A program made the translations under genes and the position numbers. A DNA stretch of 53,408 nucleotides from an uncultured Lentisphaeraceae bacterium. GTDB lineage: Bacteria > Verrucomicrobiota > Lentisphaeria > Oligosphaerales > Oligosphaeraceae. This document shows positions 7,383 to 38,070 of this stretch, piece by piece. The notes beneath the pieces were generated by a model. That model was not told the origin of the DNA. It saw only the letters and a list, made by a program, of their open reading frames with translations, and did no database searches. The DNA lies in NCBI GenBank assembly GCA_964407145.1, contig CAYOUR010000002.1, positions 1-53,408 of the forward strand. The letters run 5' to 3'. Every line of letters begins with the position of its first letter. Position 1 is the stretch's first letter.

Positions 7383-7519
7383 GATTTTTCGCAGTGGTTG
7401 AGGTTGGATTTGTGCAGATGGACGGTGGCGGCGGAAAATCGCAGTCGGCCCGGAAATTTTATGGCGAAGCCAACATTCAACGTGGTCCTGGCCGGCATGG
7501 CTCTTCGGCTTCCAAGGCA

Positions 7520-13977: not shown

Positions 13978-14103
13978 GCGTTTGCGAAAAAAACGTAGGC
14001 CAAGACCCGTGGTCATGACGGAAATGCGCTGGGACTGGCGAGTGGCCGGCGGTGGAAGGCGGGTGGGCAAAAGGACTTTTTGACGATGATCCCGGGGTTG
14101 GTC

Positions 14104-14841: not shown

Positions 14842-14847
14842 GGGTCG

Positions 14848-15294: not shown

Positions 15295-15476
15295 TTTGAC
15301 TTTGTCCAGGAAAATGGTTTTAGCCGGGCAGCCCTTATGCCATTTTTTGCACGGTGGAGGAAGTCAGTAGCCAAACGGCCCAATCGGGTTTTGCATGTCG
15401 CTGCATGGTGTTGAAAGACGGGGTCTGCTACAGTCATCTCATGATGAAGGTCTGAAATAGAAATGTAGCTGTTGGG

Positions 15477-15784
15477 AAGTAATTGGTAATGTGCGAAATC
15501 TTGTGATGAACACTTGTGAGCTTTCAGACCGCCGGAGGTAGTCCAGGTTTATGTATCGCCCTTTCAGGGCTCAATGAACATTTGCCTTTACCCAGGGCGG
15601 CGCACGCCTCCGGCGTGCTTGCCCTGGGTGATAAGGATAAATAAACAGGGAGCCCTGAAAGGGCGACACATAACCTCCTTGGTGCTGGCAATGTCGCGCC
15701 CAGTAGGAGCATTACCGTAAGCTTGACAACCACCAGGTCAAATCTCTCTTCCTATCACAACACTTCGCACATTAACAAGTAATT
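15477..15784. mobile_element. MITE-like non-autonomous element: 292-bp body, ~24-bp imperfect terminal inverted repeats, 8-bp direct duplication AAGTAATT
   Basis: AAGTAATT occurs at 15477-84 and 15777-84. Left end is GGTAATGTGCGAAATCTTGTGAT; reverse complement of the right end is GTTAATGTGCGAAGTGTTGTGAT (20/23). The interior folds into a nested long hairpin (tcgccctttcagggctc / gagccctgaaagggcga, apex 15591-15628). There is no credible ORF. Confidence 0.6.
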
Positions 15785-23683: not shown

Positions 23684-25398
23684 GGCGCGGTCTCCAGGCA
23701 GAGCAGGCGGTTGTCCGTGGTGCGGATGATGATTCTGGCCTGGGCGAAGGCCGGGATGGCCACGACCTGGGCGCCCAGGTCGTGTTCGGCGGTCAGGATG
23801 AAACGGTCCGGGGACGGTTCGACGACCAGGAGCTTGCCGTCCAGGTTGACCGCGATGATTTTGCCGTCGACGACGACCGGTGAAGCATAGAAGCCGTTGT
23901 CGAAGTTTTCCTCGAAGACCTCCTCGCCGGTGGTGGCGTTGAGGGCGATGACGCTGCCGCCGCTGGTGAACAGGTACATGGTGTTTTGGGCGACGACCGG
24001 TGAAGCCACGTCCGGCATGGGCACATTGTGGTTCTGCCAGCGCGGGGTCGGGCTGAGGGGCTCGAAGGCCGCCGCGACGGCGCCGGAGTTGGCGAAGAAG
24101 AACAGTCCCAGGTCGGGGAAGGCTGAGGTCGCCACTTCGCCGCCCAGACATTCATTTTCCCAGAGCTGCCTGCCGGTATTGAGGTCGAAGGCCTCGGCCT
24201 TGGCGTTGCCGGCGGTGAAGAGGACGGGCGTGCCCTCGGGGGTGACCAGCAAAGACGGCGAGGACCAGGAGGTGGCGGAGGGTCGGGAGGTTTTCCAGAG
24301 CGTCTTGCCGGTGGTCGTGTCCAGGGCCAGGATTGTCTGCTGCTTTTCCGTGTCGTGCTGAAGTACGAGGGTGTTTCCGGCCAGGAGGGGCGAGGAGGCG
24401 TAGCCGTAGAGGATTTCGAAGTCCGGCAGCTGGCTGGTCCAGCGCCGGTTGCCCTGGTGGTCGAAGGCGACGATCTGGCCGGTGGCAAAGACGGCGAAGA
24501 CGCCGGTGTCATCAACGGCGGCGGTCGGCGCGGCGTAGCCGGTGTCGTCGGTGACGGCCGGGACTTTGGCGGCGCGGTCAACGGCGCCGGTCCAGAGCAG
24601 GCGGCCGTCGTCCAGGCTGAAGCAGTAAACGGCCCGGGACTGCCGGTCGCCGCCGGTCAGGAAAATGCGGTTTTCCCAGACGACCGGCGAGCTGTAGCCC
24701 GGCAGGGGGATTTTGGTCGACCAGGCGACCGTGAGGTCCCATTTGGCCGGCAGGCGGTTCCGGTTGGGGAGGACGGAGCCGCGGAAGCCAGGCCAGAATT
24801 CGGCGGCCCGTTCCAGGGCTTCGCCGAGGGGGAGGGTCGGGGTGGCGTCCGTGGCTGGCTGGTCCGGCCCGTTGCCGCGGGTTTGTTCATGGTCCGGGCT
24901 GGTTGCCGCCGCCGCCGTCAGTCGTCGTGGCCGGCTGGCGTCGCGGAGGGTGTTGGCGGCGAGGGCGATGACGACGACGGCCAGGCACGCGGCCAGTCCG
25001 TGGCGCAGGCAGGTGTTCTGGCGGAGGCGTTTCGCGGCCGGCGCGCCGGACGGTTTTTTCAGTTCATGGCTGCTGGTGACGGCCATGACCGCGGCGCCGG
25101 TGAGGAAGGCGATCAATCCGGCTGCGGCCAGGGCGCGGCCGAGGTCCATGCGGTCATGGTGGCGGAAGTAGGTCTGCCGGTACAGGAGGTCGAGTTCACG
25201 GATGACGTTGACGAAGTTTTGGTCGGCCGCCTTCTGGCCGATTTGGCTGCGCAGGTCCTGGAGGATGGCCTCGGTGTCCGGCAGCGCCTGGCGGGCCCGG
25301 TGGGTTTCGGCGGCCAGGAGGCAGCCCAGCAGAATCAGGAAAGCCAGGGCGACCAGGCAGAGATTCCGGCTGAGGTTGTACAGGAGGGAGCGATTCAT
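23680..25398 (-). CDS. PQQ-like (BamB-type) beta-propeller repeat protein, N-terminal membrane anchor
   Basis: TM segment LCLVALAFLILLGCLLAA, then FWPGFRGS...GYSSPVVWENRIFLTG and repeated propeller blades. The start is moved to MNRSLLY at 25398. Confidence 0.8.
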   Translation of the reverse strand: MNRSLLYNLSRNLCLVALAFLILLGCLLAAETHRARQALPDTEAILQDLRSQIGQKAADQNFVNVIRELDLLYRQTYFRHHDRMDLGRALAAAGLIAFLTGAAVMAVTSSHELKKPSGAPAAKRLRQNTCLRHGLAACLAVVVIALAANTLRDASRPRRLTAAAATSPDHEQTRGNGPDQPATDATPTLPLGEALERAAEFWPGFRGSVLPNRNRLPAKWDLTVAWSTKIPLPGYSSPVVWENRIFLTGGDRQSRAVYCFSLDDGRLLWTGAVDRAAKVPAVTDDTGYAAPTAAVDDTGVFAVFATGQIVAFDHQGNRRWTSQLPDFEILYGYASSPLLAGNTLVLQHDTEKQQTILALDTTTGKTLWKTSRPSATSWSSPSLLVTPEGTPVLFTAGNAKAEAFDLNTGRQLWENECLGGEVATSAFPDLGLFFFANSGAVAAAFEPLSPTPRWQNHNVPMPDVASPVVAQNTMYLFTSGGSVIALNATTGEEVFEENFDNGFYASPVVVDGKIIAVNLDGKLLVVEPSPDRFILTAEHDLGAQVVAIPAFAQARIIIRTTDNRLLCLETAP

Positions 25399-25444
25399 GG
25401 TCTGAGGCAGTCTGGCTTCGGGAGTGAGGTGGGCGGTGTCGCGG

Positions 25445-26068
25445 TCAGCGGATGAAGTTGGTCTGGGTGCGTTGTTCGAGGATGGGTCTGGGCACCTTGC
25501 CCTTGGCGTTGTCAATGCATTTCAGCAGCCAGGCCATGTTGCGGGCCAGGGTGCGCAGGGTCTGCTGGCCCTCCAGGTCGGCCTTGCCCTCTTCGGGCGT
25601 CAGGCCATGCATTGAATTCCAGTACTGCGAGGATACGACCGGCATGTTGGACATGGTGAAGTACTTGTTGAGCCGGTCGAAGGCGGCGCTGGCGCCGCCG
25701 CGGCGGCAGTTGACGACCGCGGCGGCCGGCTTGAAGGCGAAGGCGTAGTAGCGGGAGAAGAACATCCGGTCGAGGAAGGCGCACAGCGAGCCGTTGGGGC
25801 CGGCGAAGTACACGGGCGAGCCGACGATCAGGCCGTCCGCCCGGCACAGGCGTTCGGCGGCCTCGTTGACCAGGTCTCCGGTGAAGATGCAGCCGTTGCC
25901 GGTTTTGCGGCAGGCGCCGCAGGCGGTGCAGGCCTGGATCGGCTTGTCGCTGATATGCAGCAGATGCGTGTCGACGCCTTCCTGCTGCAGCTGGTCGGCG
26001 ACGGTCTGCAGGGCGGCGCTGGTGCAGCCATTGCGGCGGGGGCTGCCATTGATGAGCAGGACATTCAT
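25445..26068 (-). CDS. Iron-sulfur flavoprotein (Isf) / NADPH-dependent FMN reductase family
   Basis: MNVLLINGSPRRNGCT flavodoxin-like start. Compact CTACGACRKTGNGC (Cx2Cx2Cx6C) cluster motif. GGAGAAAA SD upstream. Confidence 0.8.
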   Translation of the reverse strand: MNVLLINGSPRRNGCTSAALQTVADQLQQEGVDTHLLHISDKPIQACTACGACRKTGNGCIFTGDLVNEAAERLCRADGLIVGSPVYFAGPNGSLCAFLDRMFFSRYYAFAFKPAAAVVNCRRGGASAAFDRLNKYFTMSNMPVVSSQYWNSMHGLTPEEGKADLEGQQTLRTLARNMAWLLKCIDNAKGKVPRPILEQRTQTNFIR

Positions 26069-26142
26069 GTGGTTTTCTCCAGGGGCAGATGGGTTGAGCG
26101 ATGACGGTGGGGGAGACTGGGAAGGGCGGGGCGTTGCCGGCG

Positions 26143-27438
26143 CTACGTGTTCGCCGGCGGGGCGGAGTTGCTGGCGGCTGCGGCGGCGGGCTGGCTCCGG
26201 CTCGGGCGCCGTTGCCGGGCCTGTTCGACCGGGCAGAGTGCGAAGCAGCGGCCGCAGACCAGGCAGAGGGTCTGGTCGATTTCATAGGTCCGCCGTTCCG
26301 GGTGGCGTCTGGCCAGGGCGATCAGTTCGGCCATGACGACGAGGGCCAGGACGGCGCCGGCGCCGGTCATGCCGAAGCGCGCGGTGCGTTCGGCCTGCCA
26401 GGCGGCCTGGCGCAGTTCCGTTTCCGGCCGTCCGGAGACGATGAAGGCGATGACGGCTTCGGAGTCGCTGAATTCGTCGAGTTCCCTGACCAGGGCCACG
26501 TCCGGGTTGGTGGTGGCGAGCAGTGGCGCCAGGGCGAAGCCGAGCCAGGCGCCGGCGGCGAGGGCCAGGGGCGTCATCGTCAGCAGCCGTTTGACGCGTT
26601 CCCGGCCGCGGGCGTGTTTTTCGGGCCAGTTGGGCGGTTCCGGTGCCAGGATGGCGCCATTGGGGCAGGTCTGTTCGCACAGTCGGCAGTTGACGCAGTC
26701 GCCATGGGTGATGGTGAGTCTTTTGACGCTGAACAGCGTGAGGAAGCGGAGCAGCACGCCATACGGGCAGAGATAGCGGCAGAAGGGCCTGGAGACAAAG
26801 ACGCCAATGGCGAGCAGGACCACGCCGAGATACACGGCCGGAGCCGCAAAGGTGAAGGTGAAGATGGGGAAGAACGGGTCCAGCTGACAGAGGTGAAAGG
26901 CGCCGCCGGCCGCGGCGGCCACAACGGACAGCAGGAGAATCAGCACGGGCAGGAACCGCAGCAGGCGGTCCAGGGCCATGGGCACGCGAACGGTTTTCAG
27001 GTGGACGAGTTCCTGGATGGCGCCGAGGGGGCAGCCGCCGATGCAGAACAGCCGTCCAAACAGCAGGGCGGTGGCGAGCGGCAGGACGACCAGGAGGGTG
27101 AGAGTGAGGGGCAAGGCGTTGTCGCCGGCCAGGGCGGCGGCCAGGTTGAGATGCAACCCGACCGGGCAGGGGCAGGGGCGCAGCCAGAAGCCGCTGACGA
27201 TCAGGGTGAGGCCGGAAAGCGCGAGCAGGGCGCGGCGGGATTTCAGGCGATGGGCGGCCAGCCCGGCCAGGAGCATCAGGCCGACCAGGATGGCGACCCT
27301 GACCCACCCGTCGTCAAACAACGACGGTTCCAGGTCCATGAGCGGTTCGGTGTAGTCCTGGAATTCGGGTTTGGGGAATCTGGCCTGGGCGGTGATTTGC
27401 GCCAGGGTGGGCAGGAGCCAGGCGGGCAGGACCATCAT
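26143..27438 (-). CDS. NapH/NosH/CcoG-like integral-membrane polyferredoxin
   Basis: Two CX3CP motifs (CIGGCPLG, CRYLCPYG) between TM helices. CVNCRLCEQTCP and CLVCGRCFALCP 4Fe-4S motifs. GGAGGTG SD upstream. Confidence 0.8.
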   Translation of the reverse strand: MMVLPAWLLPTLAQITAQARFPKPEFQDYTEPLMDLEPSLFDDGWVRVAILVGLMLLAGLAAHRLKSRRALLALSGLTLIVSGFWLRPCPCPVGLHLNLAAALAGDNALPLTLTLLVVLPLATALLFGRLFCIGGCPLGAIQELVHLKTVRVPMALDRLLRFLPVLILLLSVVAAAAGGAFHLCQLDPFFPIFTFTFAAPAVYLGVVLLAIGVFVSRPFCRYLCPYGVLLRFLTLFSVKRLTITHGDCVNCRLCEQTCPNGAILAPEPPNWPEKHARGRERVKRLLTMTPLALAAGAWLGFALAPLLATTNPDVALVRELDEFSDSEAVIAFIVSGRPETELRQAAWQAERTARFGMTGAGAVLALVVMAELIALARRHPERRTYEIDQTLCLVCGRCFALCPVEQARQRRPSRSQPAAAAASNSAPPANT

Positions 27439-27980
27439 GGGGCCACCTCCCCGGGGATGTTTTTGAAGATGTATGGCTGATCAGCCGGTACTTTGACGAA
27501 GGCCTGTGCCGGGCAGGTCAGGGCGATCTGGCATTGGTTGCAGTTGAGGCAGAGGCCATGCCGGACCTGCAGAAACAGCGAGCCGTTGCCGAAGGAGGCG
27601 CAGCCTTTGACGCATTTTCCGCAGCCGATGCAGAGTTCCTCGTCGATTTTGTATTCGAAGTACGGGTCTTCGACGAAGGTGCGGACGATGGCGCCGGTTG
27701 GGCAGCGCTGGTTTTCGGCGGCGGTATCGAAGTCAACGCGGTCGTCATGGTAGTAGCCGCTGCAGAAGTCGCAGTAGCCGCAGCTGGCATATTGATGGAC
27801 GCATTTGACCGCGGAGGGTTTTTTGACGCAGGCGGTGGCGCAGTTGCCGCACTGGATGCATTTTTCCGGGTCGATCTGCCAGTAGGTGCGGGGTGGTGGG
27901 GGGCGTTTGCGCAGGAGGTTGAGGACCGGCAGGGCCAGCGCCGTTCCCAGCAGATATTGAAAGAAGTGTCGTCGGTTCAT
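27435..27980 (-). CDS. Tat-signal poly-[4Fe-4S] ferredoxin (NapG-like periplasmic FeS protein)
   Basis: MNRRHFFQYLLGTALALPV is a twin-arginine signal. CIQCGNCATAC, CIGCGKCVKGC and CLNCNQCQIALTCP motifs. ATGA overlaps occur at both ends (27435-38 and 27977-80). Confidence 0.8.
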   Translation of the reverse strand: MNRRHFFQYLLGTALALPVLNLLRKRPPPPRTYWQIDPEKCIQCGNCATACVKKPSAVKCVHQYASCGYCDFCSGYYHDDRVDFDTAAENQRCPTGAIVRTFVEDPYFEYKIDEELCIGCGKCVKGCASFGNGSLFLQVRHGLCLNCNQCQIALTCPAQAFVKVPADQPYIFKNIPGEVAP

Positions 27981-28192
27981 CGGGTGTTCTCCCGGAAGGA
28001 ACGGGCGGTCGGGTGTCCGCAGGCGGCGAGGTATTGGCAGCCGCGGCAGACGCCTGATCCGCGGCAGCGGTCGTGGCCTGGGGCCGTCGCGGTCTGGCTG
28101 GCCGGCCGGCGGCTGGAACGGAAGACGAGCCGGGCCAGGACGGCGAACAGGGCCAGGCGCATGGCCAGGGCGATGAATTGGCGTCGTGTCAT
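27977..28192 (-). CDS. Small Tat-signal cysteine-rich protein (71 aa)
   Basis: MTRRQFIALAMRLALFAVLA is twin-arginine-like, followed by CRGSGVCRGCQYLAAC (Cx5Cx2Cx6C). The stop overlaps the next start as ATGA. There is no SD and the ORF is short, so confidence is moderate. Confidence 0.45.
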   Translation of the reverse strand: MTRRQFIALAMRLALFAVLARLVFRSSRRPASQTATAPGHDRCRGSGVCRGCQYLAACGHPTARSFRENTR

Positions 28193-28272
28193 GGTTGTTG
28201 TGGGGCTGGGGCTGCGGTGGCGATTGCGGGCGACAGGTGGTGACCGGCGTCGTCGACCGGTGCCGGTGGGGG

Positions 28273-28938
28273 TCAGTCTCCGGGGTCCGGCACGGTCCAG
28301 ACGCGTTGCCGCTGCCGGTCGATAATATAGGCGGCGTCGGGGACATGGATGAGCCCGTAGTCGAATTCGGACGGGGGCAGGTCGTCGGTGATGACGCTGA
28401 CTTCATTGCCGGCCGGATCGAACAGGCGCGCCTGGCGGGTTCCTTTCTCCATGGTGACGAAGCGTCCATGGCGGAGGGCGGCGAAGCGGACGGGGTTGCA
28501 GCAGCCGCGGAAGGGCTCCTGCGGTTGCCAGGCGGCAAGGAAGCGGCCGGTCCGCGGGTCAAGCTGTTCCAGACGTTTGCGGCCGACGTTGGCGACCCAG
28601 AGGTTGCCCTCGGGGGACAGATCCAGGGGGAAGGCGTCCCCGGGGACGATGAAGCGGTCCTGGCCCGAGGATTCCCAGGCGGTTTCCCCGGTGGCGACCG
28701 AGGTGGCCTTGACCAGGAAACGTTCGCGGTCGACGCTGAAGGCGAGGCCGTGGAGGTGCAGCGGCTGCGGTTCCGGAAGGGCGGCCAGCTCGCCATTGCC
28801 GGCGGCGGCGGCATTGGCCAGGGCCGGGTCCTGCTCCGGCGGCGCTGGCGGGCTGAGACGGAACATCATGATGGCCGAGCCCAGCAGGATGAGCAGGCCA
28901 AGCACCAGCAGCGCGAATGGGACGGGAGAGAGTCTCAT
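28273..28938 (-). CDS. Membrane-anchored NHL-repeat-like protein (221 aa)
   Basis: N-terminal TM FALLVLGLLILLGSAIMMF. NLWVANVGRKRLEQLDPRTGRF is an NHL-type blade. The start overlaps the upstream stop as ATGA. Confidence 0.6.
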   Translation of the reverse strand: MRLSPVPFALLVLGLLILLGSAIMMFRLSPPAPPEQDPALANAAAAGNGELAALPEPQPLHLHGLAFSVDRERFLVKATSVATGETAWESSGQDRFIVPGDAFPLDLSPEGNLWVANVGRKRLEQLDPRTGRFLAAWQPQEPFRGCCNPVRFAALRHGRFVTMEKGTRQARLFDPAGNEVSVITDDLPPSEFDYGLIHVPDAAYIIDRQRQRVWTVPDPGD

Positions 28939-30374
28939 GGTTGCGTCCTTTTCAGTTCCAGGCAGGCCATGGAGGTGGAGTCGCGCACGATCATCAGCCC
29001 GTCCGCCAGGGCGATTGGTCCCCAGGAATCGACGCCGGGGAGGACTCGGGCGGCGGCGAGGCGGGTGAAGGTGTGGTTGTCGTAGGCCAGGACGGACAGG
29101 TGGCCGTCGTCGTCCAATATCCAGAATTTGTCATCGGCCAGGAGGAACGGTCCGAGGCCGAAGCGCAGGTCGCGTCCTGACGCGGCGACGATGTCAGGCA
29201 GGTGTTCGGGGTCGGCGGCGACGAGTTGGGCGCGGCGGGCGCCGGCGTCCTTGGGCTGGATGGTGAAGAGGAGGCCATGGTGGAAGATCGGGGTTTGCTG
29301 TTCGGCGGCGGGCGCCAGGGTGGGTTTCCATTTGCCCAGCAGAGCTGTCTGCCAGCCGGCCGGGCCGCGTTCGACCTGCAGCAGGGCGGAGCCCATGCCG
29401 TAGCCGGCGGTCAGGAACAGCCGGTTGTGAGCGACCTGGACCGGCGAGGGCGCCCAGACGGGCGGCAGCCATTCGCGCGAGCTCCAGAGCAGCTCGCCGT
29501 CGGGCGACACGCCGATGATGCCGCCGAGGCCGGCGTACACATAGTGTTTTTCGCCGGCCAGGGTGGCGATGATGACGGAGCTGTGGGACATTTTCAGGCC
29601 GGGGGCATTGGGCAAACTCCAGATTGGTTCGCCGGTTTTGAGGTCGAGGGCGAGGAGCAGGGTGTTGGCGCCGGCGGGCGCGAGGATGACCCGGTCGCCG
29701 TCGATGAGCGGGCATTGACCGGCGTACCATTGCGGGGGTTCGGCGCCGTCCTGTCCGACCAGGTCACGCGTCCAGAGCAGGTCGCCGGTGATGGCCTGGG
29801 CAGCCATGACATGGGCCAGGGGCCCCAGGGTGACGACGGTGTCGTCGGCGACGGCCGGCACGGTCCGGGACTTGCCGTGGTTGCGGCGGATTTCATTGCG
29901 GTAGGACCGTCGCCACAGTTCGCGGCCGTCCTCCAGGGCAAAGCAGCGCAGGGCGTCTTCCTCCTCCTGCTCCAGGTAATCCAGGATGTAGACGCGCTGG
30001 CGGGCGATGACGGGTGCGGCATAGCCTTCGCCGAGTGGGATGCGCCAGCGGACCGGCGGGCCGTCCGCCGGCCAGTCGTGGTTCAGCGGCGGGGCGGTGG
30101 CGGCGGCGGCGATGTTGTCGCGGTTTGGGCCGCGGAAGCCTGGCCAGGGATAGTCCTGGTCGCCGGAGTCAGGGTCGTCCGGCGAAAAGCGTTGGAAGGA
30201 TTCGCCGATGATGACGGTTTTCGCCGCGGCAGTGCGGCTGTCGGCGCCGTCCATGCCCGGCAGGGCGATGGTGATGTCCCGCTGCGGGGTGACGGTGGCG
30301 AAGACGACGATGCCGGCGGCGGCGGCGGCCAGGCAGAGGCAGGTGAACAAGGTGATGATCAGGCGGTCAGGCAT
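28935..30374 (-). CDS. PQQ-like (BamB-type) beta-propeller repeat protein, N-terminal membrane anchor
   Basis: TM LIITLFTCLCLAAAAAGIVVF, then YPWPGFRGPNRDN...GEGYAAPVIARQRVYILD. The track start at 30401 is TTG; ATG at 30374 is chosen. Confidence 0.8.
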   Translation of the reverse strand: MPDRLIITLFTCLCLAAAAAGIVVFATVTPQRDITIALPGMDGADSRTAAAKTVIIGESFQRFSPDDPDSGDQDYPWPGFRGPNRDNIAAAATAPPLNHDWPADGPPVRWRIPLGEGYAAPVIARQRVYILDYLEQEEEDALRCFALEDGRELWRRSYRNEIRRNHGKSRTVPAVADDTVVTLGPLAHVMAAQAITGDLLWTRDLVGQDGAEPPQWYAGQCPLIDGDRVILAPAGANTLLLALDLKTGEPIWSLPNAPGLKMSHSSVIIATLAGEKHYVYAGLGGIIGVSPDGELLWSSREWLPPVWAPSPVQVAHNRLFLTAGYGMGSALLQVERGPAGWQTALLGKWKPTLAPAAEQQTPIFHHGLLFTIQPKDAGARRAQLVAADPEHLPDIVAASGRDLRFGLGPFLLADDKFWILDDDGHLSVLAYDNHTFTRLAAARVLPGVDSWGPIALADGLMIVRDSTSMACLELKRTQP

Positions 30375-30434
30375 GGGGGATGTGCTGTCGATGTCGGTCA
30401 ATCCGGTTGGGTTTCATTGGCTGGGGTGGTTCAG

Positions 30435-32237
30435 TTATGCGTGGCCGTGGTCTGGAGGCGGTTTGGTTCCGGTCTGATCGGGCGCCGGCGCCGGCGCCGG
30501 CAGGTGCTGGTATTGGCCGGCGGCCAGGAAGGCCCTGGTAATGAAGATTCGCGGGTAGAGCTGTTCGGAATACCACAGCTGGGAGAAATATAATCCGACC
30601 GGTTCCGGGGGCAAGTCATCGAGGTTTTCCGGGGCGGTGCGGAGGAAGTCGAGGCCGCGCTGGATGGCCTGGCGGGTGTCGGCGCCGGTGTCGTGGCCGG
30701 TCGCCAGGGCGGCGATGGCCCTGGCCGTGAAGATGAATCGCGGCGTGGCTCCGGGGCGGTCATCGGCGCCCCAGGCGCCGGAGGGCTGCTGGGCAGCCAG
30801 CAGATAGTCGCGGGCCTTGGCGCACCATGGCGTCGCCAGGCCGCAGAGGTTTTCCAGGACGACGGCGGTGCCGTAGACCGGGGCCAGGCCGTCAGGGGCG
30901 AGCTGGTCGCCGAACCAGAGCGGCAGGAAGGCGCCGTCGGCCCGCTGGTTGCGGGACAGGAAGTCGAGGATGCGTTTTTGGCAGCGTTCGGCCGCGTGTC
31001 GCCAATCGGGCTGGAGGGCATGGCGCCAGAGGTCAAGGGCGTGGTAGGCGTGGGCGGAGAGGTCGGGGCAGCTGCGGTCAAAGGGAAGCTTCCCCCAGCC
31101 GCGGCAGAAGGTGGGGATACCCCCGTCGCGGTTTTGCAGGTTGATGAGCCAGGCACAGCCGTCGGCGATTTCTGGTGTCAGGCGGTCGGGCTGGAGGGCG
31201 TGGAGGGCGACCAGGGCCGCGGCCGTGTCATCGGCGTCCGGGACCGCGCCGGACTGATGTGTCCAGGCCCAGCCGCCGGGTGCGGCGCCGGTGAATGGAT
31301 GGACGGCGGCGAACTGCCGTTGCCGGATGATGTCGGCGAGGTCTTCGCGTTCGGCGGCGGTCATGGCCGGCGCTGCCGCCTTGGCGGCCAGGGCGGTGCA
31401 CCATTGTGCCAGGCTGGTGTCGATTGGCCAGGCGCCGTCAGGCCGGACCGTGGTGGTGAGGAACCGCTCCGCGGCCAGGGCGACCGGATGGGCGCGAAGG
31501 TTGGCGGCCGACAGGCAGATGAGGCAGAAGGCGGTGAGCGGCGCGGCCTCCAGAAAGCCCCCGGAGGGCGGTTGCAGTCTGGTGAGCAGGCGGAGCACGG
31601 CGGGGATCAGACGGCGCCGGAGGCGGGCAGGCAGGCCTGGCCGGGCATGAGTGGCCTGGGCGACGCCGATGGCGATCAGGGCGGGGAGGGCGTAGCTGAC
31701 CACGCGCAGATTGAGGAAACGGAAACAGGCCCGCGGCAGCAGCGCCAGTTCAAACGGCAGCTGGGGCATCCGGCTCCAGGGGTGGTCGTCGTCGTGAAGC
31801 AGGTCTGAGGCTGTGCATAGTGCCAGGATCGGCACGGAGAAGGTCAGATCCTGGCCATATTTTTCCAGGATGGCAGCGCGGATGGCGGCGGGCGAGAAGC
31901 CGCCAAGTCTGGCGGTCAGGTACGCCCGGGCGCGGGTTGCGGCCGGGGAATCGGCGTCGGCATGGGCCAGGGCGGCGTAGCCCAGCAGGCTGGCGGTGAG
32001 ATTGGGCGGGGATTCCGGGGTGTCGCCCCAGGCGCCGTCGGCCAGTTGGGTGTCGGCCAGCCATTGGCAGGCGGCGGCAATGGTCTTGGCGTGCCGGTCC
32101 GGGGCGGCCAGGGCCAGGCTGATGGCGGCCGTCGCCGTGGAGACGGCTGAAGGTGCGAGGTGGCCTGACCAGTCCCCTGACGGGAGGCGACGGCGCAGCA
32201 GTTCGGTGCTCAGGCGTTGATAATCGTGGCAGGTCAT
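30435..32237 (-). CDS. Squalene-hopene-cyclase-like class II terpene cyclase (600 aa)
   Basis: DADDTAAALVAL matches the DxDDTA catalytic motif. QW-type repeats present (QLADGAWG, QNRDGGIP, QQPSGAWG). The C-terminal GLYFSQLWYSEQLYPRIF resembles the SHC C-terminus. Confidence 0.8.
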   Translation of the reverse strand: MTCHDYQRLSTELLRRRLPSGDWSGHLAPSAVSTATAAISLALAAPDRHAKTIAAACQWLADTQLADGAWGDTPESPPNLTASLLGYAALAHADADSPAATRARAYLTARLGGFSPAAIRAAILEKYGQDLTFSVPILALCTASDLLHDDDHPWSRMPQLPFELALLPRACFRFLNLRVVSYALPALIAIGVAQATHARPGLPARLRRRLIPAVLRLLTRLQPPSGGFLEAAPLTAFCLICLSAANLRAHPVALAAERFLTTTVRPDGAWPIDTSLAQWCTALAAKAAAPAMTAAEREDLADIIRQRQFAAVHPFTGAAPGGWAWTHQSGAVPDADDTAAALVALHALQPDRLTPEIADGCAWLINLQNRDGGIPTFCRGWGKLPFDRSCPDLSAHAYHALDLWRHALQPDWRHAAERCQKRILDFLSRNQRADGAFLPLWFGDQLAPDGLAPVYGTAVVLENLCGLATPWCAKARDYLLAAQQPSGAWGADDRPGATPRFIFTARAIAALATGHDTGADTRQAIQRGLDFLRTAPENLDDLPPEPVGLYFSQLWYSEQLYPRIFITRAFLAAGQYQHLPAPAPAPDQTGTKPPPDHGHA

Positions 32238-33163
32238 GAGGTCAATCCCATGGCCACCAGGCCGTAGGCGGTATATTCCAGGTCGGGCGTGTCGTCGCCG
32301 GGGAAGGCGCCGAAACCGCCGGCGTCGGTGATGGTCTGACGGAGAAAAGGCTTGAGGGAAAACGGCGCGGGTCGCCCGCAGCAGTGCAGGGCCAGGCTGG
32401 CCGTGGCGGTCGAGAGCAGGTCCGGGCCGGGCGCCATTGGCGTGGCCGGGAAGCCGCCGGTCTGAGTCTGGAGGGTGGCGAGGCGTTCCAGGTCGGGGCG
32501 GAGCGCGTCGGGCCTGGGACGGCCGTCATTGAGCAGCATGAGTGCGGCGGCGGTGGCGTTGACGGCCGGAGTTGAGTCGCCGGGCAGGTTGGCGAACAGG
32601 CCGTCGGTCAGGCGGTACTGCTCCAGGCGTTGGGGCGTGAAGTCCAGGCCCAGGTCGCCGGCCAGGGACCAGCGCAGGAGCTGCGAGTAGGGCGACCATG
32701 GGTCGTGGTGGGGGAAGCGTGCGGCGCCAACGCCGGCGTCGGCGCCGGCGTCGGCATTCAGGTCATCCCAGGCTTCGCGCAGGTCTGGCCGGAGCGGTGG
32801 CGTCAGCCGGCGGCGCCGGATGATGGCGGCGAAGCGGGCGATGGCCGGCTGGCGGAGATACAGAAGCAGGGCGTGTGAGCGGGTAAGGCAGGCGAGGTGG
32901 ACCAGGTCCAGGGAGTTCGGGGCAAAGCCGCGCAGGTAGGTTTCCTGTGCCGGCAGGTCGAGGCGGAGGCCGGCGGCAGCGGCGATCAGCAGCCCGAACA
33001 TGGTGTAGTAGAGGTCGGCATTGCCGTGCCGGTCGGCGAATCCGCCGGCGGGCGCCAGCCGCGAGCGCACGAAGTCGAGCAGGCGCGCCGCCGTGTCCGG
33101 GTGGCATTTTTGCCAGCCGGCGCGGATGGTGCGGAACATGATGATGGAAAGCGGAGTCGGCAT
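32234..33163 (-). CDS. Prenyltransferase/squalene oxidase repeat protein (single alpha-alpha toroid, 309 aa)
   Basis: Repeated xxGGF motifs (APAGGFADRHG, QTGGFPATP, DAGGFGAFPG) resemble protein-prenyltransferase beta / terpene cyclase repeats. ATGA overlap with the cyclase gene. Confidence 0.7.
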   Translation of the reverse strand: MPTPLSIIMFRTIRAGWQKCHPDTAARLLDFVRSRLAPAGGFADRHGNADLYYTMFGLLIAAAAGLRLDLPAQETYLRGFAPNSLDLVHLACLTRSHALLLYLRQPAIARFAAIIRRRRLTPPLRPDLREAWDDLNADAGADAGVGAARFPHHDPWSPYSQLLRWSLAGDLGLDFTPQRLEQYRLTDGLFANLPGDSTPAVNATAAALMLLNDGRPRPDALRPDLERLATLQTQTGGFPATPMAPGPDLLSTATASLALHCCGRPAPFSLKPFLRQTITDAGGFGAFPGDDTPDLEYTAYGLVAMGLTS

Positions 33164-33195
33164 GTGTGGGGGCTATTTCGGTCCGGCGCCGCCGG

Positions 33196-34728
33196 TCATT
33201 TTTCCGGCAGGATTTTTTCCGTGATTCGGCAGAGGAGGATTTTCAGCTGGATGTTGCTGACGCCGTCGATGGCCTGGAAGGCCTGTTGTCGGAAGTCGCG
33301 ATACAGTTGCGTCACCGCCGCCGCGGCCTCTGTCCGGGAGACGCGGTTGGCGTGGCCATGGAGGGTGACCAGGGAGGCCGGGTCGTCGTCCTCGAGGTCG
33401 TCCAGGAGCTGGTAGGCGACGCCCATGGCGTCGGACAGTTCGAGCAGGGCCTGTCGGTGGCGATCGGCCTGGCCGGCGGCGATGGCGCCGAGGAGGAAGG
33501 CGACGCGGAAGGCCGGCGCTGTTTTGAGTCGGAAGGTGGCCATGACGGTGTCGAGGCCGGGGTGACCGGTGTGCAGTTCGAATTCGCGGGCCTGTCCGAG
33601 GGCGAGCTGGCAGTGGCCGTCCGCGGCGGCCGCGACCAGTTCGGCCTGGATGGTTGCCGGGACCGGCGCCGACGCCAGCAGCCGGTAGCCTTCACCGACC
33701 AGGTAGTCGCCGACATTGATGGCGACGGGTACGCCGAGCTGGTGGTGGAGCGTCTCCTCGCCGTAGCGGAAATCGTCATCGTCTTCAATGTCGTCGTGGA
33801 TCAGTGACGCTTTGTGGAAACATTCGACGGCGATGGCGATGCGGTCGACCCAGTCCGGGATTTCCGGCGCTTCGGTCAGTGCCAGGTAGACGAGGGTGGT
33901 CAGCAGGGGCCGGTAGTGCTTGCCGTGCCGGGAGAGGGCGCTGACGGCGGCGGCGTTGAAGCGGCCCAGGTCGTGGTGCCGGGTGCAGGCCAGGCAACGG
34001 CGCAGGGCGTCGTCCTGGAACAGGGCGGCGAGGTGGTTTTTGACCTCGGGCAACGGTGGTGTGAGAACCGGGTTTTCTTCGGGGATGGCGAGGGCGTAGA
34101 GCAGTTCATCCTGGTCGAATTCGGTGTTTCGGCAGCCGTCGCGGTTGAGTGGAATGGCGTATCCCGGCACGGCGTGTCGGTCCATGGCCGGGAAGGTCCT
34201 GGTCAGGGCATCGAGGCAGGACACGCCGATGACGGCCTGGATTTCCCCGGCCTCGACCCAGGCGGCGACGCGGGACGACGATTCCGCGACGAGCGTGGCC
34301 ATGCCGAGGCGTTCGGCCTGTTCCCGCCAGGCGGCGACCGGGCATCGTCCGCAGCCGGCGCAGAGCAGTCCCAGGTCGTCGAATTCGGCCTGGCAGTGTT
34401 CATGGTCGCGGATGCAGACGGGCAGGAGCAGCAGCCGTCGTTCGCGGGGGATGCGGCGGATGGCTTTTTCCCAGATGACGTTGCTGATGCAGACGACGCA
34501 CCAGTCACGCCAGGCTTCCGGCAGGGCGTTGTCGGCGAGGAAGCCGGTGGCGAGGCGAATCAGGCGTGGCAGCGGCACGGGCGGCCGGAGCGCCAGGCCG
34601 CTGACGCGGATCCGGAGACGGGCCCGCAGGTCGCGGCGCAGCTCCGGCGTTTCGGGCACGCACGGTGTGCTTGCGCCGCCGGTCGCGGTGTTTTCCGGCG
34701 CTGCCGGGGTGGTGTTGAGGTCAGCCAT
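33196..34728 (-). CDS. DUF116-like Cys-rich domain fused to trans-polyprenyl diphosphate synthase (510 aa)
   Basis: N-terminal LLLLPVCIRDHEHCQA...CAGCGRCPV...VIGVSCLDAL is DUF116-like. C-terminal LIHDDIEDDDDFRYG (FARM DDxxD) and YQLLDDLEDDD (SARM). The start is moved to MADLNTT at 34728 and overlaps the upstream stop by 8 nt. Confidence 0.8.
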   Translation of the reverse strand: MADLNTTPAAPENTATGGASTPCVPETPELRRDLRARLRIRVSGLALRPPVPLPRLIRLATGFLADNALPEAWRDWCVVCISNVIWEKAIRRIPRERRLLLLPVCIRDHEHCQAEFDDLGLLCAGCGRCPVAAWREQAERLGMATLVAESSSRVAAWVEAGEIQAVIGVSCLDALTRTFPAMDRHAVPGYAIPLNRDGCRNTEFDQDELLYALAIPEENPVLTPPLPEVKNHLAALFQDDALRRCLACTRHHDLGRFNAAAVSALSRHGKHYRPLLTTLVYLALTEAPEIPDWVDRIAIAVECFHKASLIHDDIEDDDDFRYGEETLHHQLGVPVAINVGDYLVGEGYRLLASAPVPATIQAELVAAAADGHCQLALGQAREFELHTGHPGLDTVMATFRLKTAPAFRVAFLLGAIAAGQADRHRQALLELSDAMGVAYQLLDDLEDDDPASLVTLHGHANRVSRTEAAAAVTQLYRDFRQQAFQAIDGVSNIQLKILLCRITEKILPEK

Positions 34729-35917
34729 AGGCGCCAAATCCGCAGAAGTAGTATTTTTTGGCCAGTCGGTAGGCCCAGGATTTTTCCGGGATGACGCCTT
34801 CGGGGTCATGATGTCCCGGCAGGATGGAAGCCCGGTCGAGTTCGGCGAGGGCATCGCGGTTGGAGGAGTCGATGGGGTGGTGTCGGCGCAGGAATGCGGC
34901 CAGTGCGGCGGGGTCTTCGAGGAGGATGCAGCCGCGGGACCGTTCGGCGGTGAAGGCCCGCAGCGCCGGCAGGAAGTCGTCCTGCTGCAGGATGGCCTGG
35001 AGGTTGTCGGCGGCTGGGTTGAGACGGCTGGAGCAGAACTGGAGCGGCGGGCAGAATTCGACGGCGCCGGACGGCGCGATGTGGTGCGAGAGTCCGGTTG
35101 CGCCCGGGCAGAGGGCGTTGCCCTGGTGGTCCCAGTAGGCGTCGATGATGAGCAGTTTGGCGGTGCGGCGTTGGTCAACCACGAATTGCCGCAGCTGGCG
35201 AATCTGTTCGCGGCTGAGGGCGTTTTCGGGTTCCGGGTGGGCGCCGGCTGGCCGGTAGATATAGTACCAGAGGTAGTGCACGCCCTTGCCGGTGAGCAGG
35301 TCGAGATAGTCCTTTGACACCAGCTCGGGGAAGTTCTGGCGGGTGATGCTGGCGGCCACGCCGGTGAACAGCTTTGCCTGGACCGCGGTCTCAAGGGCCT
35401 GGAGGGCGCGTTGGAAGACGTCGTCGCGGCCGCGTCGCCGGGCTGATTCATCCTGCAGTCCTTCGATGCTGATCAGAGGCGTCACGTTGCCGAGTCTGGC
35501 CAGCCGGCCGGCAAAGTCCGGGGTGAGGGCCAGGCCGTTGGTGAACAGCTGGAAGTAGCTTTTCGGGTGGGCGGCGAAGAAGTCGAGCAAGTCGTGGTGC
35601 AGGAGCGGTTCGCCGCCCAGGATGCCGAAGAAGAAGGACCGGTGCTGATTGGCCTGTTTGACCAGGGCGTCGAGCTGTGTTCGCGAAAGCTGCTGCGAAG
35701 GACTGGTCTGCTGCACCCAGCAGCCGCGGCACTGCAGCTGACACTGATTGGTGATGGACAGCATCAGGAAGGCCGGAAAGAACGGCTCGCCATTCCGGAG
35801 GCGCTTTTCAAAGGCTCGGACGGCGCCGGCGCCGCGCCAGGCGAAGTTGATGGCGAGGGAGCGCAGCACCGGCCAGGAGCAGCCGCGGGCAATGCGGCAC
35901 AGGGCGACGGGATTCAT
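34721..35917 (-). CDS. Radical SAM protein (398 aa) with short Cys-containing C-terminal (twitch/SPASM-like) region
   Basis: LMLSITNQCQLQCRGCW carries CX3CX2C. GILGGEPLL. C-terminal ALCPGATGLSHHIAPSGAVEFCPPLQFC. The start is moved to MNPVALC at 35917, an ATGA overlap with the ferredoxin gene. Confidence 0.85.
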   Translation of the reverse strand: MNPVALCRIARGCSWPVLRSLAINFAWRGAGAVRAFEKRLRNGEPFFPAFLMLSITNQCQLQCRGCWVQQTSPSQQLSRTQLDALVKQANQHRSFFFGILGGEPLLHHDLLDFFAAHPKSYFQLFTNGLALTPDFAGRLARLGNVTPLISIEGLQDESARRRGRDDVFQRALQALETAVQAKLFTGVAASITRQNFPELVSKDYLDLLTGKGVHYLWYYIYRPAGAHPEPENALSREQIRQLRQFVVDQRRTAKLLIIDAYWDHQGNALCPGATGLSHHIAPSGAVEFCPPLQFCSSRLNPAADNLQAILQQDDFLPALRAFTAERSRGCILLEDPAALAAFLRRHHPIDSSNRDALAELDRASILPGHHDPEGVIPEKSWAYRLAKKYYFCGFGAYG

Positions 35918-36609
35918 TGCGGGTCGTCCTTGAACAGGGGAGGAGTGGTGGGGCGGGAAGCGTGGCGCGACTTGAGGCGGGCCAGAAGACCGCGGGGGTC
36001 CCCAGCCGCCGCCGCCGCCGCCGGCGGCGGCGGCGGCGGTTCCGCGCCATTGATGGGCTCTTCCTTTGACTTTGGGAAGATGATGGCCTGCCGCGGGCAC
36101 ATGCGGGCGCAGGCCGGGCAGTCGGTCTTGCAGCTGGCCGGGGCCGTCACCAGGATTTTTCCGGAACCGTCTTTGGAATAAACGCCGAACATGCAGAAAT
36201 CCAAGCACTTGCCGCAGTTGACGCAGCGTTGTTGGTCGATGACGGGGAACCACGGAATCCATTCATCGTGTTCCGGCGCTTCGGGCGGCGGTGGCGGCGT
36301 TGTTGGGGCTGTGTCCTGATCGAAGGTGACGCCGAGCGCGTCTGCGGCCTCGTGGATGCTGCCGGTTCGCAGGTTGATGACGCAGGCGGCCGGGAAGTCC
36401 GGGAACATGGCGTGAATGGCGCGCGGATGGCAGGCCACGATTCGGTCGCAACCGCCGGGCAGCTGCGGCTGCGGCCTGGCCGCCAGGCGGCAGAGGTCCG
36501 GCACGACCGTCACCTGATGGCCGTGGCGACGGCAATTGGCCGCCAGGGCGGCCAGGGCCCGGGAGTCGAGGTGATGATAAAGCCGGCAGGTGCAGAAGAG
36601 GATGTGCAT
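35914..36609 (-). CDS. 4Fe-4S ferredoxin-domain protein with Pro/Ala-rich linker and tail
   Basis: CVNCGKCLDFC and CKTDCPACARMCP motifs. The N-terminal domain has a CxC (ILFCTCRLY). The track start at 36639 is GTG; ATG at 36609 is chosen. Confidence 0.7.
   Translation of the reverse strand: MHILFCTCRLYHHLDSRALAALAANCRRHGHQVTVVPDLCRLAARPQPQLPGGCDRIVACHPRAIHAMFPDFPAACVINLRTGSIHEAADALGVTFDQDTAPTTPPPPPEAPEHDEWIPWFPVIDQQRCVNCGKCLDFCMFGVYSKDGSGKILVTAPASCKTDCPACARMCPRQAIIFPKSKEEPINGAEPPPPPPAAAAAAGDPRGLLARLKSRHASRPTTPPLFKDDPQ
36005..36039. repeat. Perfect (GCC)6/(GGC)n trinucleotide palindrome inside the ferredoxin gene
   Basis: gccgccgccgccgccgcc|ggcggcggcggcggcgg, read directly. On the minus strand it encodes PPPPPPAAAAAAG. 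Confidence 0.95.
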
Positions 36610-36750: not shown

Positions 36751-38070
36751 TCATGGTTTCAGGTCAAAGGCCAGGGCGACATCGCCGTGGCGGAGATAGA
36801 GCTTGCCATTGGCGATGATGGGGTGGCACCAGTGCTGCTGTTGACCGTCACGGATGGGGAAGCGCGAGACTTCGGCAAAGGCGTGCGGGTCCGGTTTGAC
36901 GAGGAAGACGTTGCCGCGCCCGGCATCGTAGAGGTAGATCATGTTGTCGGCGGCGATCACTTGTCCCACGCCCTGTCCGCTGATGCGTTCGGAAAAAATG
37001 GTTTTGCCGGTGCTGGCCTGGATGCAGGTCCATTTGTTGGCGCCATGCGAGGTGCCGAAGAGGTAGTCGCCCAGCCAGACGAAGCCGTGGTGCTGGGAGC
37101 AGAGGTCGAAGTTGGTCCAGAGGACGTTGGCCTGGCTGGCGTCGTCGTTGAGCCGGAACATCATGGAGCCGTGGCCATAGCCGTTGGAGAGGAACAGCCT
37201 GCCATCCTGGTAGACCAGGGAATTGACGATGATGTCATAGCGCTTGATGGTCCGGCCGGCGTCGAGGATTTTGGCGAAGTTGATGGACCAGGCCAGGTCG
37301 CCATTTTCGGGGTTGACGCCGAAGACGTAGTTGGTGGTGGCGCCGACGATCTGGCGGGTGCCCTGGTGCCGAATCATGGTCGGGGTGACGTAGCTGGCCT
37401 TGTCCCGGAGCGATTTTGTTTGCCAGCGGGTGCGGCCGGTTTTGCGGTCGAGGGCGACGAGGGTGGTCTGGGTGCCGCCGGGCGTGACGTAGACGGCGTC
37501 GTCATCGACCAGCGGTGATTCCGCTGTTCCCCAGCCGCCGTTGACGCCGCCGAAATCGTGTTTGGCATTCACCTTCCAGGCCAGCTTGCCGGTTTCGGCG
37601 TTGATGCAGACGACTTCGCCGCTGCCGGAAATCGCGAATACGTCACCTTTGCTGACGCTGGGGGTGGTTCGGGCGGCCGGATAGTCGCGCGACCAGGGGC
37701 TGCCGTATGCGGTCTGCCAGAGCACCTTGCCGTCGGCGATGTCCAGACAGGACATGAATTCGACCTTGCGGCCGTCGTCGTCCCTGATGCCGGTGAAGAA
37801 TATTTTGCCGTTGGCGGTGACTGGCGAGGAATAGCCGGCGCCGATGCCGTCTGTTTTCCAGAGCCTTGGCGGGCCGTTGTCGGGCCAGGATTTCCGGAGT
37901 CCGGTCTCGCGGTAGACGCCGGTGTGTCCCCTTCCGCGCCATTGGCCGACGTCTTCGGCGACGGCGGTGTTGAGGTGGGCGAGCCCCAGGAGGAGGGTGA
38001 GAAGCAGGAAGATTCGGGGCGGTCTTGCGGGCGCGTCCGGCGCCGTCAGGCGGTGGCGGTAGGTCGTCAT
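36751..38070 (-). CDS. PQQ-like (BamB-type) beta-propeller repeat protein, secreted
   Basis: Signal peptide IFLLLTLLLGLAHLNTAVA, then WRGRGHTGVY...GAGYSSPVTANGKIFFTG. First gene of the co-directional cluster. Confidence 0.8.
   Translation of the reverse strand: MTTYRHRLTAPDAPARPPRIFLLLTLLLGLAHLNTAVAEDVGQWRGRGHTGVYRETGLRKSWPDNGPPRLWKTDGIGAGYSSPVTANGKIFFTGIRDDDGRKVEFMSCLDIADGKVLWQTAYGSPWSRDYPAARTTPSVSKGDVFAISGSGEVVCINAETGKLAWKVNAKHDFGGVNGGWGTAESPLVDDDAVYVTPGGTQTTLVALDRKTGRTRWQTKSLRDKASYVTPTMIRHQGTRQIVGATTNYVFGVNPENGDLAWSINFAKILDAGRTIKRYDIIVNSLVYQDGRLFLSNGYGHGSMMFRLNDDASQANVLWTNFDLCSQHHGFVWLGDYLFGTSHGANKWTCIQASTGKTIFSERISGQGVGQVIAADNMIYLYDAGRGNVFLVKPDPHAFAEVSRFPIRDGQQQHWCHPIIANGKLYLRHGDVALAFDLKP

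Follow-up and report, generated by a model that had tools for sequence, protein, structure and literature searches.

The window analysed here is a stretch of 53,408 nt from an uncultured Lentisphaeraceae bacterium (contig CAYOUR010000002.1, assembly GCA_964407145.1, forward-strand numbering). On its minus strand, from 36609 down to 30435, five intact open reading frames (ORFs) encode a ferredoxin, a radical S-adenosylmethionine (SAM) enzyme, a fusion of a DUF116 domain with a polyprenyl diphosphate synthase, a single-toroid protein and a terpene cyclase resembling squalene-hopene cyclase (SHC). We conclude that these genes are a co-translated biosynthetic operon, and that the pathway they represent is real, widespread and uncharacterised. 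Judging from the sequences, the probable product of the operon is a cyclic terpenoid lipid whose precursor is an all-trans, head-to-tail polyprenyl diphosphate and not squalene, and the pathway would then not be one for hopanoids.

Five intact genes form one operon

A sequence-only reading had assigned these genes, in this order, to positions 30435-36609, and had noted CX3CX2C in the radical SAM gene, DDIED and DDLED in the synthase and DADDTA in the cyclase. The order and coordinates proved exact to the base, and each motif was located in the gene named for it. Three of the four junctions overlap, by ATGA (ferredoxin/radical SAM and toroid/cyclase) or by 8 bp (radical SAM/synthase), which argues for translational coupling. 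The window ORFs are 99-100% identical to database proteins, the cyclase being 99% identical to a protein labelled 'MAG: Lentisphaeria bacterium' (NCBI). Together with strong domain E-values (Table 1) and intact ORFs, these identities indicate that the motifs are not due to chance. The GC content of the contig is high, about 0.63-0.70. Promoter and terminator sites, scanned for between 19.4 and 38.7 kb, were no more numerous than in shuffled sequence, so that the boundaries of the operon cannot be set from that scan.

A predicted class II cyclase outside the curated squalene cyclase families

The cyclase had been called SHC-like from its motif. Placement with hidden Markov models (HMMs) indicates that it is not a bona fide SHC and that it lies far outside the curated families: it scored 72.1 bits on TIGR01507 (NCBIfam, hopene cyclase) for a cut-off of 431.1, 83.6 on TIGR01787 (squalene/oxidosqualene cyclases) for a cut-off of 322.7, 81 on the oxidosqualene cyclase (OSC) model for a cut-off of 851, and 21.5 on the tetrahymanol synthase model for a cut-off of 500. 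Among enzymes of solved structure, the profile of the cyclase family came closest to A. acidocaldarius SHC, at just 99 bits, followed by drimenyl diphosphate synthases (58 bits), lanosterol synthase (49) and ent-copalyl diphosphate (ent-CPP) synthase (28). Some source annotations name family members 'squalene--hopene cyclase'. The JGI label 'squalene-hopene/tetraprenyl-beta-curcumene cyclase' is generic, and the cyclase is not a SqhC orthologue.

The DxDD motif and the His and Tyr partners of SHC are nevertheless retained throughout the family. DADDTA is encoded at 31221-31238 (residues 334-339), and in the profile alignment PDADDT of the family falls on PDVDDTA of SHC (D374-D377). Residues A335, D336 and D337 do not vary, and position 334 holds Asp or Glu; also invariant are H396, Y455 and W279, the equivalents of SHC H451 (within 31038-31055), Y495 (within 30864-30881) and W312. 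We take D376 of SHC to be the general acid of the DxDD motif, with H451 and Y495 as its partners in protonation. The invariance of the DxDD, His, Tyr and Trp equivalents suggests that the protonation machinery is under selection, and we conclude that the window cyclase is, as far as its residues tell, a working class II cyclase of a separate family.

Conservation within the family is highest in the signature FCRGWGKLPFDRSCPD, encoded at 31062-31109. Within it, three basic residues specific to the family, R379, K383 and R388, surround F386, which aligns with F434 of SHC, presumably one of the residues that form the constriction of the substrate channel. SHC has no basic residues there. The R379/K383/R388 cluster could be where an anionic head group of the substrate is held, and the arrangement fits such a group being present on the molecule that is cyclised.

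A synthase predicted to make chains longer than C20

The third gene joins DUF116 to a trans-isoprenyl diphosphate synthase (trans-IPPS), and both domains were present in all of the homologues listed (120/120). In an AlphaFold2 (AF2) model of the fusion (pLDDT 88, pTM 0.88), DUF116 appears as a small alpha/beta domain packed on the synthase. It spans about 34096-34506 and has seven invariant Cys, including a CxxCxxC at 34342-34362. The synthase domain belongs to the trans-IPPS family (PF00348) by both Asp-rich motifs and by the KT and GQ motifs. The first Asp-rich motif (FARM) lies in ECFHKASLIHDDIED at 33781-33825, with DDIED at 33781-33795, and the second, DDLED, at 33388-33402. DDIED, DDLED, K402-T403 (KT) and G378-Q379 (GQxxE) are invariant in 31 synthase homologues, which argues that the domain is catalytic. 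Its best relative in the PDB is the geranylgeranyl diphosphate (GGPP) synthase of P. horikoshii (142 bits).

Ahead of the FARM the sequence reads ECFHKASLxHDD, with an invariant A307 at position -5 and S308 at -4, whereas position -5 is Tyr, Phe and Tyr, respectively, in the aligned GGPP synthases 1wy0, 5jfq and 3m9u. According to a rule reportedly set out by Ohnuma et al. in 1996, a bulky aromatic residue at -4/-5 goes with a short chain, and a small residue with products above C20. The bulky aromatic of the short-chain synthases, which make farnesyl diphosphate (FPP) or GGPP, is not found here, and Ala at -5 rather than Tyr or Phe speaks against an FPP synthase. Hepta- and octaprenyl synthases show the same Ala-Ser pair. 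The product is thus predicted to be longer than C20, and its length may be limited to roughly C25-C35 by an invariant Phe at -8. The residues upstream of the FARM therefore favour a linear polyprenyl longer than GGPP or FPP, which agrees with the earlier proposal of a linear polyprenyl product. No NCBIfam chain-length equivalog reached its cut-off on this synthase.

The single-toroid protein

The product of the fourth gene had been described as prenyltransferase-like with a single toroid, and profile, fold prediction and structure search agree on this. No Pfam match was found for the window protein itself. The profile of its family matches the beta subunit of Rab geranylgeranyltransferase (RabGGTase; E=3e-9), and many homologues carry PF00432. 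The AF2 model (pLDDT 94.6, pTM 0.92) is an alpha/alpha toroid, whose top Foldseek matches are the beta subunits of GGTase3 and RabGGTase, with template-modelling (TM) scores of 0.55-0.60; the single-barrel 'SHC' entries 8pak and 8paj were also matched (TM 0.51). Three repeats of the prenyltransferase/squalene-oxidase type are encoded at 33002-33046, 32438-32458 and 32270-32320. By fold, the protein groups with the prenyltransferase beta subunits (PF00432), but comparison of 26-62 family members shows no conserved Cys, and the Asp/Cys/His zinc site of these enzymes is therefore not present; nor is there a DxDD. Its invariant residues are D50, Y52, F56, D86, H89, D248, D294, E296 and Y297. D294 and E296 were considered as a mimic of the prenyltransferase zinc site and rejected, as they lie in a generic repeat motif and have no conserved Cys or His partner.

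A radical SAM enzyme with its own ferredoxin

The CX3CX2C of the radical SAM enzyme is CQLQCRGC (35720-35743), with C59, C63 and C66 invariant. Beyond these, C270, C289 and C330 (35093-35110, 35045-35056 and 34922-34936) are invariant too, and the additional auxiliary-cluster Cys place the enzyme in the SPASM/twitch branch, where their number, three, would suit a twitch domain better than a complete SPASM domain. The C-terminal tail varies very little: it reads YYFCGFGAYG in the window (34724-34753) for a family consensus YFFGFGAYG, the window enzyme having a Cys where more than 90% of the family have Phe.

Adenosylation of the HpnH kind had been thought possible. The enzyme is, however, not a clear HpnH orthologue: it scored 46.4 bits on TIGR03470 for a cut-off of 225.05, no better than on the NirJ, MftC or AhbC models of NCBIfam, and its Pfam content is limited to PF04055 and Fer4_12, DUF3463 of the HpnH C-terminus not being found. 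Its best solved relatives are the twitch enzyme SkfB (78 bits) and BlsE (53 bits), and the archaeal tetraether synthase gave 28 bits. A search of 1.84 billion representative proteins returned about 10 full-length clusters of the family, beyond which matches dropped to uncharacterised SPASM/twitch enzymes of 28-32% identity; none of these nearest relatives outside the family attains any NCBIfam cut-off. Since the hosts are rich in sulfatases, an anaerobic sulfatase-maturating enzyme (anSME) was also considered. This candidate was dropped, as no anSME model was among the best 25 of 47 NCBIfam matches and the gene keeps constant company with the terpenoid genes.

The ferredoxin has two CxxCxxCxxxC [4Fe-4S] motifs (36193-36225 and 36097-36132) and an N-terminal domain with four conserved Cys, C6, C8, C40 and C60. 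In a natural fusion found among the representative proteins (P0350, 675 aa), a Fer4 ferredoxin (residues 127-176) precedes a radical SAM part (residues 277-660) that is 52% identical to the enzyme of the module. This fusion designates the ferredoxin as the partner of the radical SAM enzyme, and backs the view that the latter has a ferredoxin of its own.

Distribution and gene order

When a single genome was scanned for each species, at least 594 species genomes proved to encode a relative of the cyclase. Carriers belong to Lentisphaerota, Kiritimatiellota, Verrucomicrobiota, Planctomycetota (Phycisphaerae, Pirellulales, Thermoguttaceae) and, in number, Bacteroidota (Prevotella, Alistipes, Parabacteroides, Bacteroidaceae, Tannerella, Marinilabiliales), and metagenome proteins add Chitinispirillia. 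They are anaerobic bacteria of gut, rumen and sediment, and some are in culture: Oligosphaera ethanolica DSM 24202, Pontiella sulfatireligans, several Parabacteroides strains, Carboxylicivirga linearis and Labilibaculum sp.

Synteny was compared in 59 loci that extend at least 5 kb upstream and in 61 that extend at least 7 kb downstream. Colinear with the cyclase were the fusion synthase in 56 of the 59 loci, the toroid gene in 55, the ferredoxin in 54 and this type of radical SAM enzyme in 49. The order is scrambled in Pontiella and in locus L084, yet the same genes are kept. Between loci of different phyla, the radical SAM enzymes compared are 46-81% identical. When all 3,090 ORFs of 84 loci were clustered, neither squalene synthases nor hpn genes nor class I terpene synthases formed a recurrent family, and none of these was found in the 53-kb window either. 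Families that do recur are those of the module, propellers and Fe-S proteins, to which Bacteroidota add a LytTR two-component pair.

In seven loci of Phycisphaerae, Pirellulales and Sedimentisphaerales, the radical SAM enzyme of this type was not detected. The same slot is occupied, in the loci examined (L066, L068, L069, L080 and L081), by a B12-binding-type radical SAM enzyme of about 520 aa, which scores 58-63 bits on TIGR04013, under the cut-off. A gene for an MFS_3 transporter lies between the synthase and toroid genes in four loci (L066, L068, L080 and L081); example coordinates for this variant are L080:3968-5980 and L080:7651-9057. The replacement makes the radical step look like a swappable tailoring step.

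Some further neighbours were seen. A His_kinase/LytTR pair lies directly upstream of the ferredoxin gene in about 9-10 Bacteroidota loci (e.g. L012:2104-3917), and may be a dedicated regulator of the modules of this phylum. Two unrelated loci without redox genes encode small DUF6132 membrane proteins close to the module (L080:12392-13051 and L084:4984-5232), and a DUF5714 gene adjoins the cyclase in L084.

A propeller and redox neighbourhood

The five genes sit inside a longer minus-strand string that runs from 38070 to 20591 (Table 1). A propeller gene directly precedes the ferredoxin in the window, in L001, in L082 and in most loci, and is thus a frequent sixth member of the module; it is kept in 13 of the 21 loci in which the redox module further downstream is missing. 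That module, whose composition suggests a route for electrons from NADH to the membrane and on to the periplasm, has the same gene order in L001 and is colinear across phyla in about 70% of loci, the remaining 30% or so having the five terpenoid genes without redox genes. Among the 61 loci with sufficient downstream sequence, a NapG/H-like pair was present in 43 and a NuoEFG-like protein in 41. In Pontiella sulfatireligans the redox and terpenoid genes are all present, in rearranged order.

Table 1. Terpenoid module of the window and adjoining genes
Feature	Position	Strand	Evidence
PQQ_2/BamB-like beta-propeller, N-terminal signal peptide	36751-38070	-	PF13360 E=8e-32
Ferredoxin-like protein, 231 aa, ATG at 36609	35914-36609	-	Fer4 families; Fer4_7 E=3.8e-6
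Radical SAM enzyme, SPASM/twitch type, 398 aa	34721-35917	-	PF04055 E=1.1e-15
DUF116::trans-isoprenyl diphosphate synthase fusion, 510 aa	33196-34728	-	PF01976 E=6.1e-29; PF00348 E=4.7e-36
Single alpha/alpha-toroid protein, 309 aa	32234-33163	-	family profile to RabGGTase beta; AF2 model
SHC-like class II terpene cyclase, 600 aa	30435-32237	-	PF13243 E=4.6e-24; PF13249 E=1.9e-17
Downstream redox/propeller module as a whole, outside the sequence-only finding	20591-30401	-	Pfam and NCBIfam
PQQ_2 propeller	28935-30401	-	Pfam/NCBIfam
Transmembrane protein, 221 aa	28273-28938	-	
RR/4-Cys peptide, 71 aa	27977-28192	-	
Tat-signal NapG-like polyferredoxin	27435-27977	-	Pfam/NCBIfam
NapH/NosR-like Fer4_5 membrane polyferredoxin	26143-27438	-	Pfam/NCBIfam
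FMN reductase	25445-26068	-	Pfam/NCBIfam
PQQ_2 propeller	23680-25398	-	Pfam/NCBIfam
NuoE-NuoF-NuoG(N-terminal)-like fusion	20591-23683	-	Pfam/NCBIfam

Elsewhere in the window, a low-GC islet at 14000-15700 (0.515, against about 0.65) contains an ORF of 245 aa with an HNH-endonuclease-like motif (14104-14841) and one of 148 aa (14848-15294), and is probably a recent insertion. The coding signal is strong (GC3 0.86) in a minus-strand ORF of 1330 aa at 3528-7520, which matches no Pfam family. Genes for two sulfatases and for a 2-oxoacid:ferredoxin oxidoreductase of two subunits (47357-48754, 51596-53122 and 488-2992) fit an anaerobic degrader of sulfated glycans.

Proposed pathway and alternatives

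In the route we propose, the synthase domain would extend an allylic primer with isopentenyl diphosphate (IPP) to more than C20, a length suggested by the Ala/Ser pair at -5/-4. The seven-Cys DUF116 is probably an Fe-S domain and might, more speculatively, process the prenyl diphosphate reductively or gate it. In the cyclase, the central Asp of DADDT, helped by the conserved His and Tyr, would protonate the terminal double bond, and a cation-olefin cascade would then cyclise the omega end; here we infer the substrate and the number of rings. The toroid protein probably acts as a partner of the cyclase. The radical SAM enzyme, reduced by its dedicated ferredoxin, would make one radical modification of the lipid, presumably the formation of a C-C bond or the addition of an adenosyl group, and the B12-type enzyme of Phycisphaerae and related lineages probably methylates instead. 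The product would most likely reside in the cell envelope, where the periplasmic propellers and the Fe-S module leading from NADH to the periplasm may use it, handle it or depend on it.

Several points weigh against this scheme. The closest solved relative of the cyclase is SHC, itself a squalene enzyme. By whole-domain HMM, the synthase resembles the short-chain (FPP/GGPP) enzymes at least as much as the long-chain ones, and its chemistry may be non-standard, since an invariant RYG (33760-33768, residues 321-323) stands where trans-IPPS normally have RRG after the FARM. The roles given to DUF116 and to the toroid protein are guesses; Foldseek with the full fusion model returned polyprenyl synthase matches alone and nothing for DUF116. 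The negative result on squalene genes is confined to the window and the neighbourhoods of the 84 loci. Finally, a simple role as membrane lipid does not explain the strong linkage to the redox module.

This linkage is the ground for another explanation, in which the whole 17.5-kb string is one functional unit and the terpenoid, rather than being a lipid of bulk membranes, serves the neighbouring electron-transfer system as its dedicated cofactor, anchor or substrate. The order propeller-ferredoxin-radical SAM-synthase-toroid-cyclase-propeller-(H)-NapG-NapH-propeller-NuoEFG is common to Lentisphaerota, Planctomycetota and Bacteroidota, and persists at just 41-50% protein identity; overlapping junctions occur along the whole string, the NapG/H-like pair is frequent (43/61), Pontiella retains the gene set despite rearrangement, and the upstream propeller stays even where the redox genes are missing. 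About 30% of loci do without redox genes, however, no gene for aromatic or quinone-ring biosynthesis is present, and a cyclised polyprenyl chain is not itself redox-active; co-transfer of an island or shared regulation could also account for the linkage. We consider this explanation unlikely. Quite improbable, in our view, is a specialised-metabolite cluster of the antibiotic type, whose product would be secreted and competitive rather than structural or physiological. A Bipolaricaulota cluster of the same gene types has been tied to an antibacterial compound, but the preprint gives no genetic link between cluster and compound (10.1101/2025.11.21.689855). The MFS_3 exporter inside the Phycisphaerae modules would fit such a role, whereas the high conservation of gene content and order in at least 594 species genomes of several phyla, with radical SAM enzymes 46-81% identical, is typical of core physiology and not of variable secondary metabolism.

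The module could also be part of an ordinary hopanoid pathway dispersed in the genome, with a divergent SHC acting on squalene from an Sqs or HpnCDE encoded elsewhere, a divergent HpnH, and a synthase that merely supplies FPP. SHC being the closest solved relative, the 'squalene--hopene cyclase' annotations and the presence of HpnH among the weak matches of the radical SAM enzyme would agree with this, but scores of 72 bits on TIGR01507 (cut-off 431), 84 on TIGR01787 (cut-off 323) and 46 on the HpnH model (cut-off 225), with no DUF3463 and with HpnH ranking no higher than NirJ, MftC and similar families, would not. Neither would the lack of any recurrent hpn or sqs gene in the 84 loci, the Ala at -5 of the synthase, where an FPP synthase would have Tyr or Phe, or the replacement of the radical SAM enzyme by a B12-type enzyme in some lineages. 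The cyclase family is moreover abundant in Bacteroidota, where SHC has been reported to be nearly absent (PMC7306690). We regard a hopanoid pathway as very improbable, and give slightly less credit still to the idea that the two toroid proteins are not cyclases at all and form a pair that binds or transfers prenyl chains, attaching the chain to a protein or small acceptor. The RabGGTase and GGTase3 beta subunits are the best matches of the smaller toroid protein, and the periplasmic propellers could be acceptors; against this, the TM scores are just 0.55-0.60, the lack of a conserved Cys leaves no Asp/Cys/His zinc site, and DxDD, His and Tyr kept invariant across phyla in the cyclase would be pointless in a transferase.

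We hold a cyclic terpenoid lipid made from a polyprenyl diphosphate to be most likely, in line with the sequence-only reading, which every check run from its list favoured. One precise form of it, regular polyprenoids cyclised at the omega end, of the tricyclopolyprenol or 'tricyclohexaprenol' type and serving anaerobes as surrogates of hopanoids, would make the module the long-sought source, in living organisms, of the cheilanthane (tricyclic terpane) series, and we hold this to be a long shot. To our knowledge, the precursor of that series, which is present in sediments and petroleum, was postulated in the 1980s and never traced to an organism or enzyme.

If the proposed pathway is correct, many anaerobic Gram-negative bacteria, among them Bacteroidales of rumen and gut, Lentisphaerota, Kiritimatiellota and anaerobic Planctomycetota, make an undescribed cyclic terpenoid lipid by a route that bypasses squalene and needs no oxygen. 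It would be the third feed for an SHC-type cyclase, after squalene and the C35 route of Bacillus, and would bring a first functional context for DUF116 as well as a new radical SAM reaction on a lipid. Geochemists are given a concrete gene set to compare with orphan polyprenoid biomarkers, and the tight linkage to redox and propeller genes hints that the lipid is tied to the redox biology of the envelope, itself uncharted. As cultured carriers exist, the pathway is directly testable.

Comparison with known systems

Our literature search returned no paper that identifies the product or assays any of these enzymes. Queries on DUF116, on a terpene cyclase with a radical SAM enzyme in Bacteroid*, on Kiritimatiella lipids, on SHC in Prevotella or Alistipes and on 8PAJ/8PAK gave nothing relevant beyond one preprint. 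It shows, in a Bipolaricaulota isolate, a cluster of a DUF116 protein, an 'SHC', a hypothetical protein, a radical SAM 'adenosyl-hopene transferase' and a polyprenyl synthetase, left uncharacterised and tied there to an antibacterial 'terpenoid alkaloid-like' compound (10.1101/2025.11.21.689855).

Planctomycetes have been reported to encode 'SHC-like' proteins that keep the catalytic residues, whose genomic context suggests non-squalene precursors and whose products, polycyclic triterpenes still unknown, might be of interest to geology (Santana-Molina et al. 2020, PMC7306690). Likened by description, these proteins are probably of the same family as the window cyclase, given the retained catalytic residues and the non-squalene context, although that paper restricts the group to Planctomycetes in a passing statement. 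The idea of a non-squalene precursor is thus not new. The main text of the same paper, as searched, names no DUF116 fusion, toroid protein, radical SAM/ferredoxin pair, propellers or redox module; what is new here is the breadth, the set of partners and the redox linkage of the module.

The hopanoid route, in which squalene from Sqs or HpnCDE is passed to SHC and then HpnH, has in common with the module the two-barrel class II fold, the DxDD(TA) motif with its His and Tyr, and a radical SAM enzyme encoded beside the cyclase. It differs in that both enzymes of the window are far under the curated SHC and HpnH cut-offs, and that the gene partnered with them encodes a DUF116-fused polyprenyl synthase of the head-to-tail kind in place of a head-to-head squalene synthase; the module also has an extra toroid protein and a dedicated ferredoxin, with no hpn genes nearby. 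The hosts differ as well, SHC being reported as nearly absent from the Fibrobacteres-Chlorobi-Bacteroidetes (FCB) group (PMC7306690), whereas the module cyclase is common in Bacteroidota.

With the class II cyclases that act on prenyl diphosphates, such as the drimenyl diphosphate synthase SsDMS (7xq4/8zg0) and the ent-CPP synthase 5bp8, the window cyclase shares protonation by DxDD. Their substrates keep the diphosphate, and the basic cluster beside the Phe of the channel entrance would fit such a head group. These enzymes are, however, of about 500 aa and use C15 or C20 substrates, their similarity to the window family is lower than that of SHC (58 and 28 bits, against 99), and the module has no class I partner.

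The sesquarterpene pathway of Bacillus, as reportedly described by Sato et al. in 2011, consists of the C35 synthase HepS/HepT, the tetraprenyl-beta-curcumene synthase YtpB and SqhC. There too, a cyclase of the SHC family is fed by a regular polyprenyl diphosphate synthase and not by a squalene synthase, and HepT has the same Ala-Ser before its first Asp-rich motif as the window synthase. By contrast, the module has no YtpB-like enzyme to remove the diphosphate, its DUF116, toroid, radical SAM enzyme and ferredoxin have no counterpart in Bacillus, and its hosts are anaerobic Gram-negative bacteria. We conclude that the closest functional precedent for the module is the C35 route of Bacillus, and that its closest structural relative is SHC.

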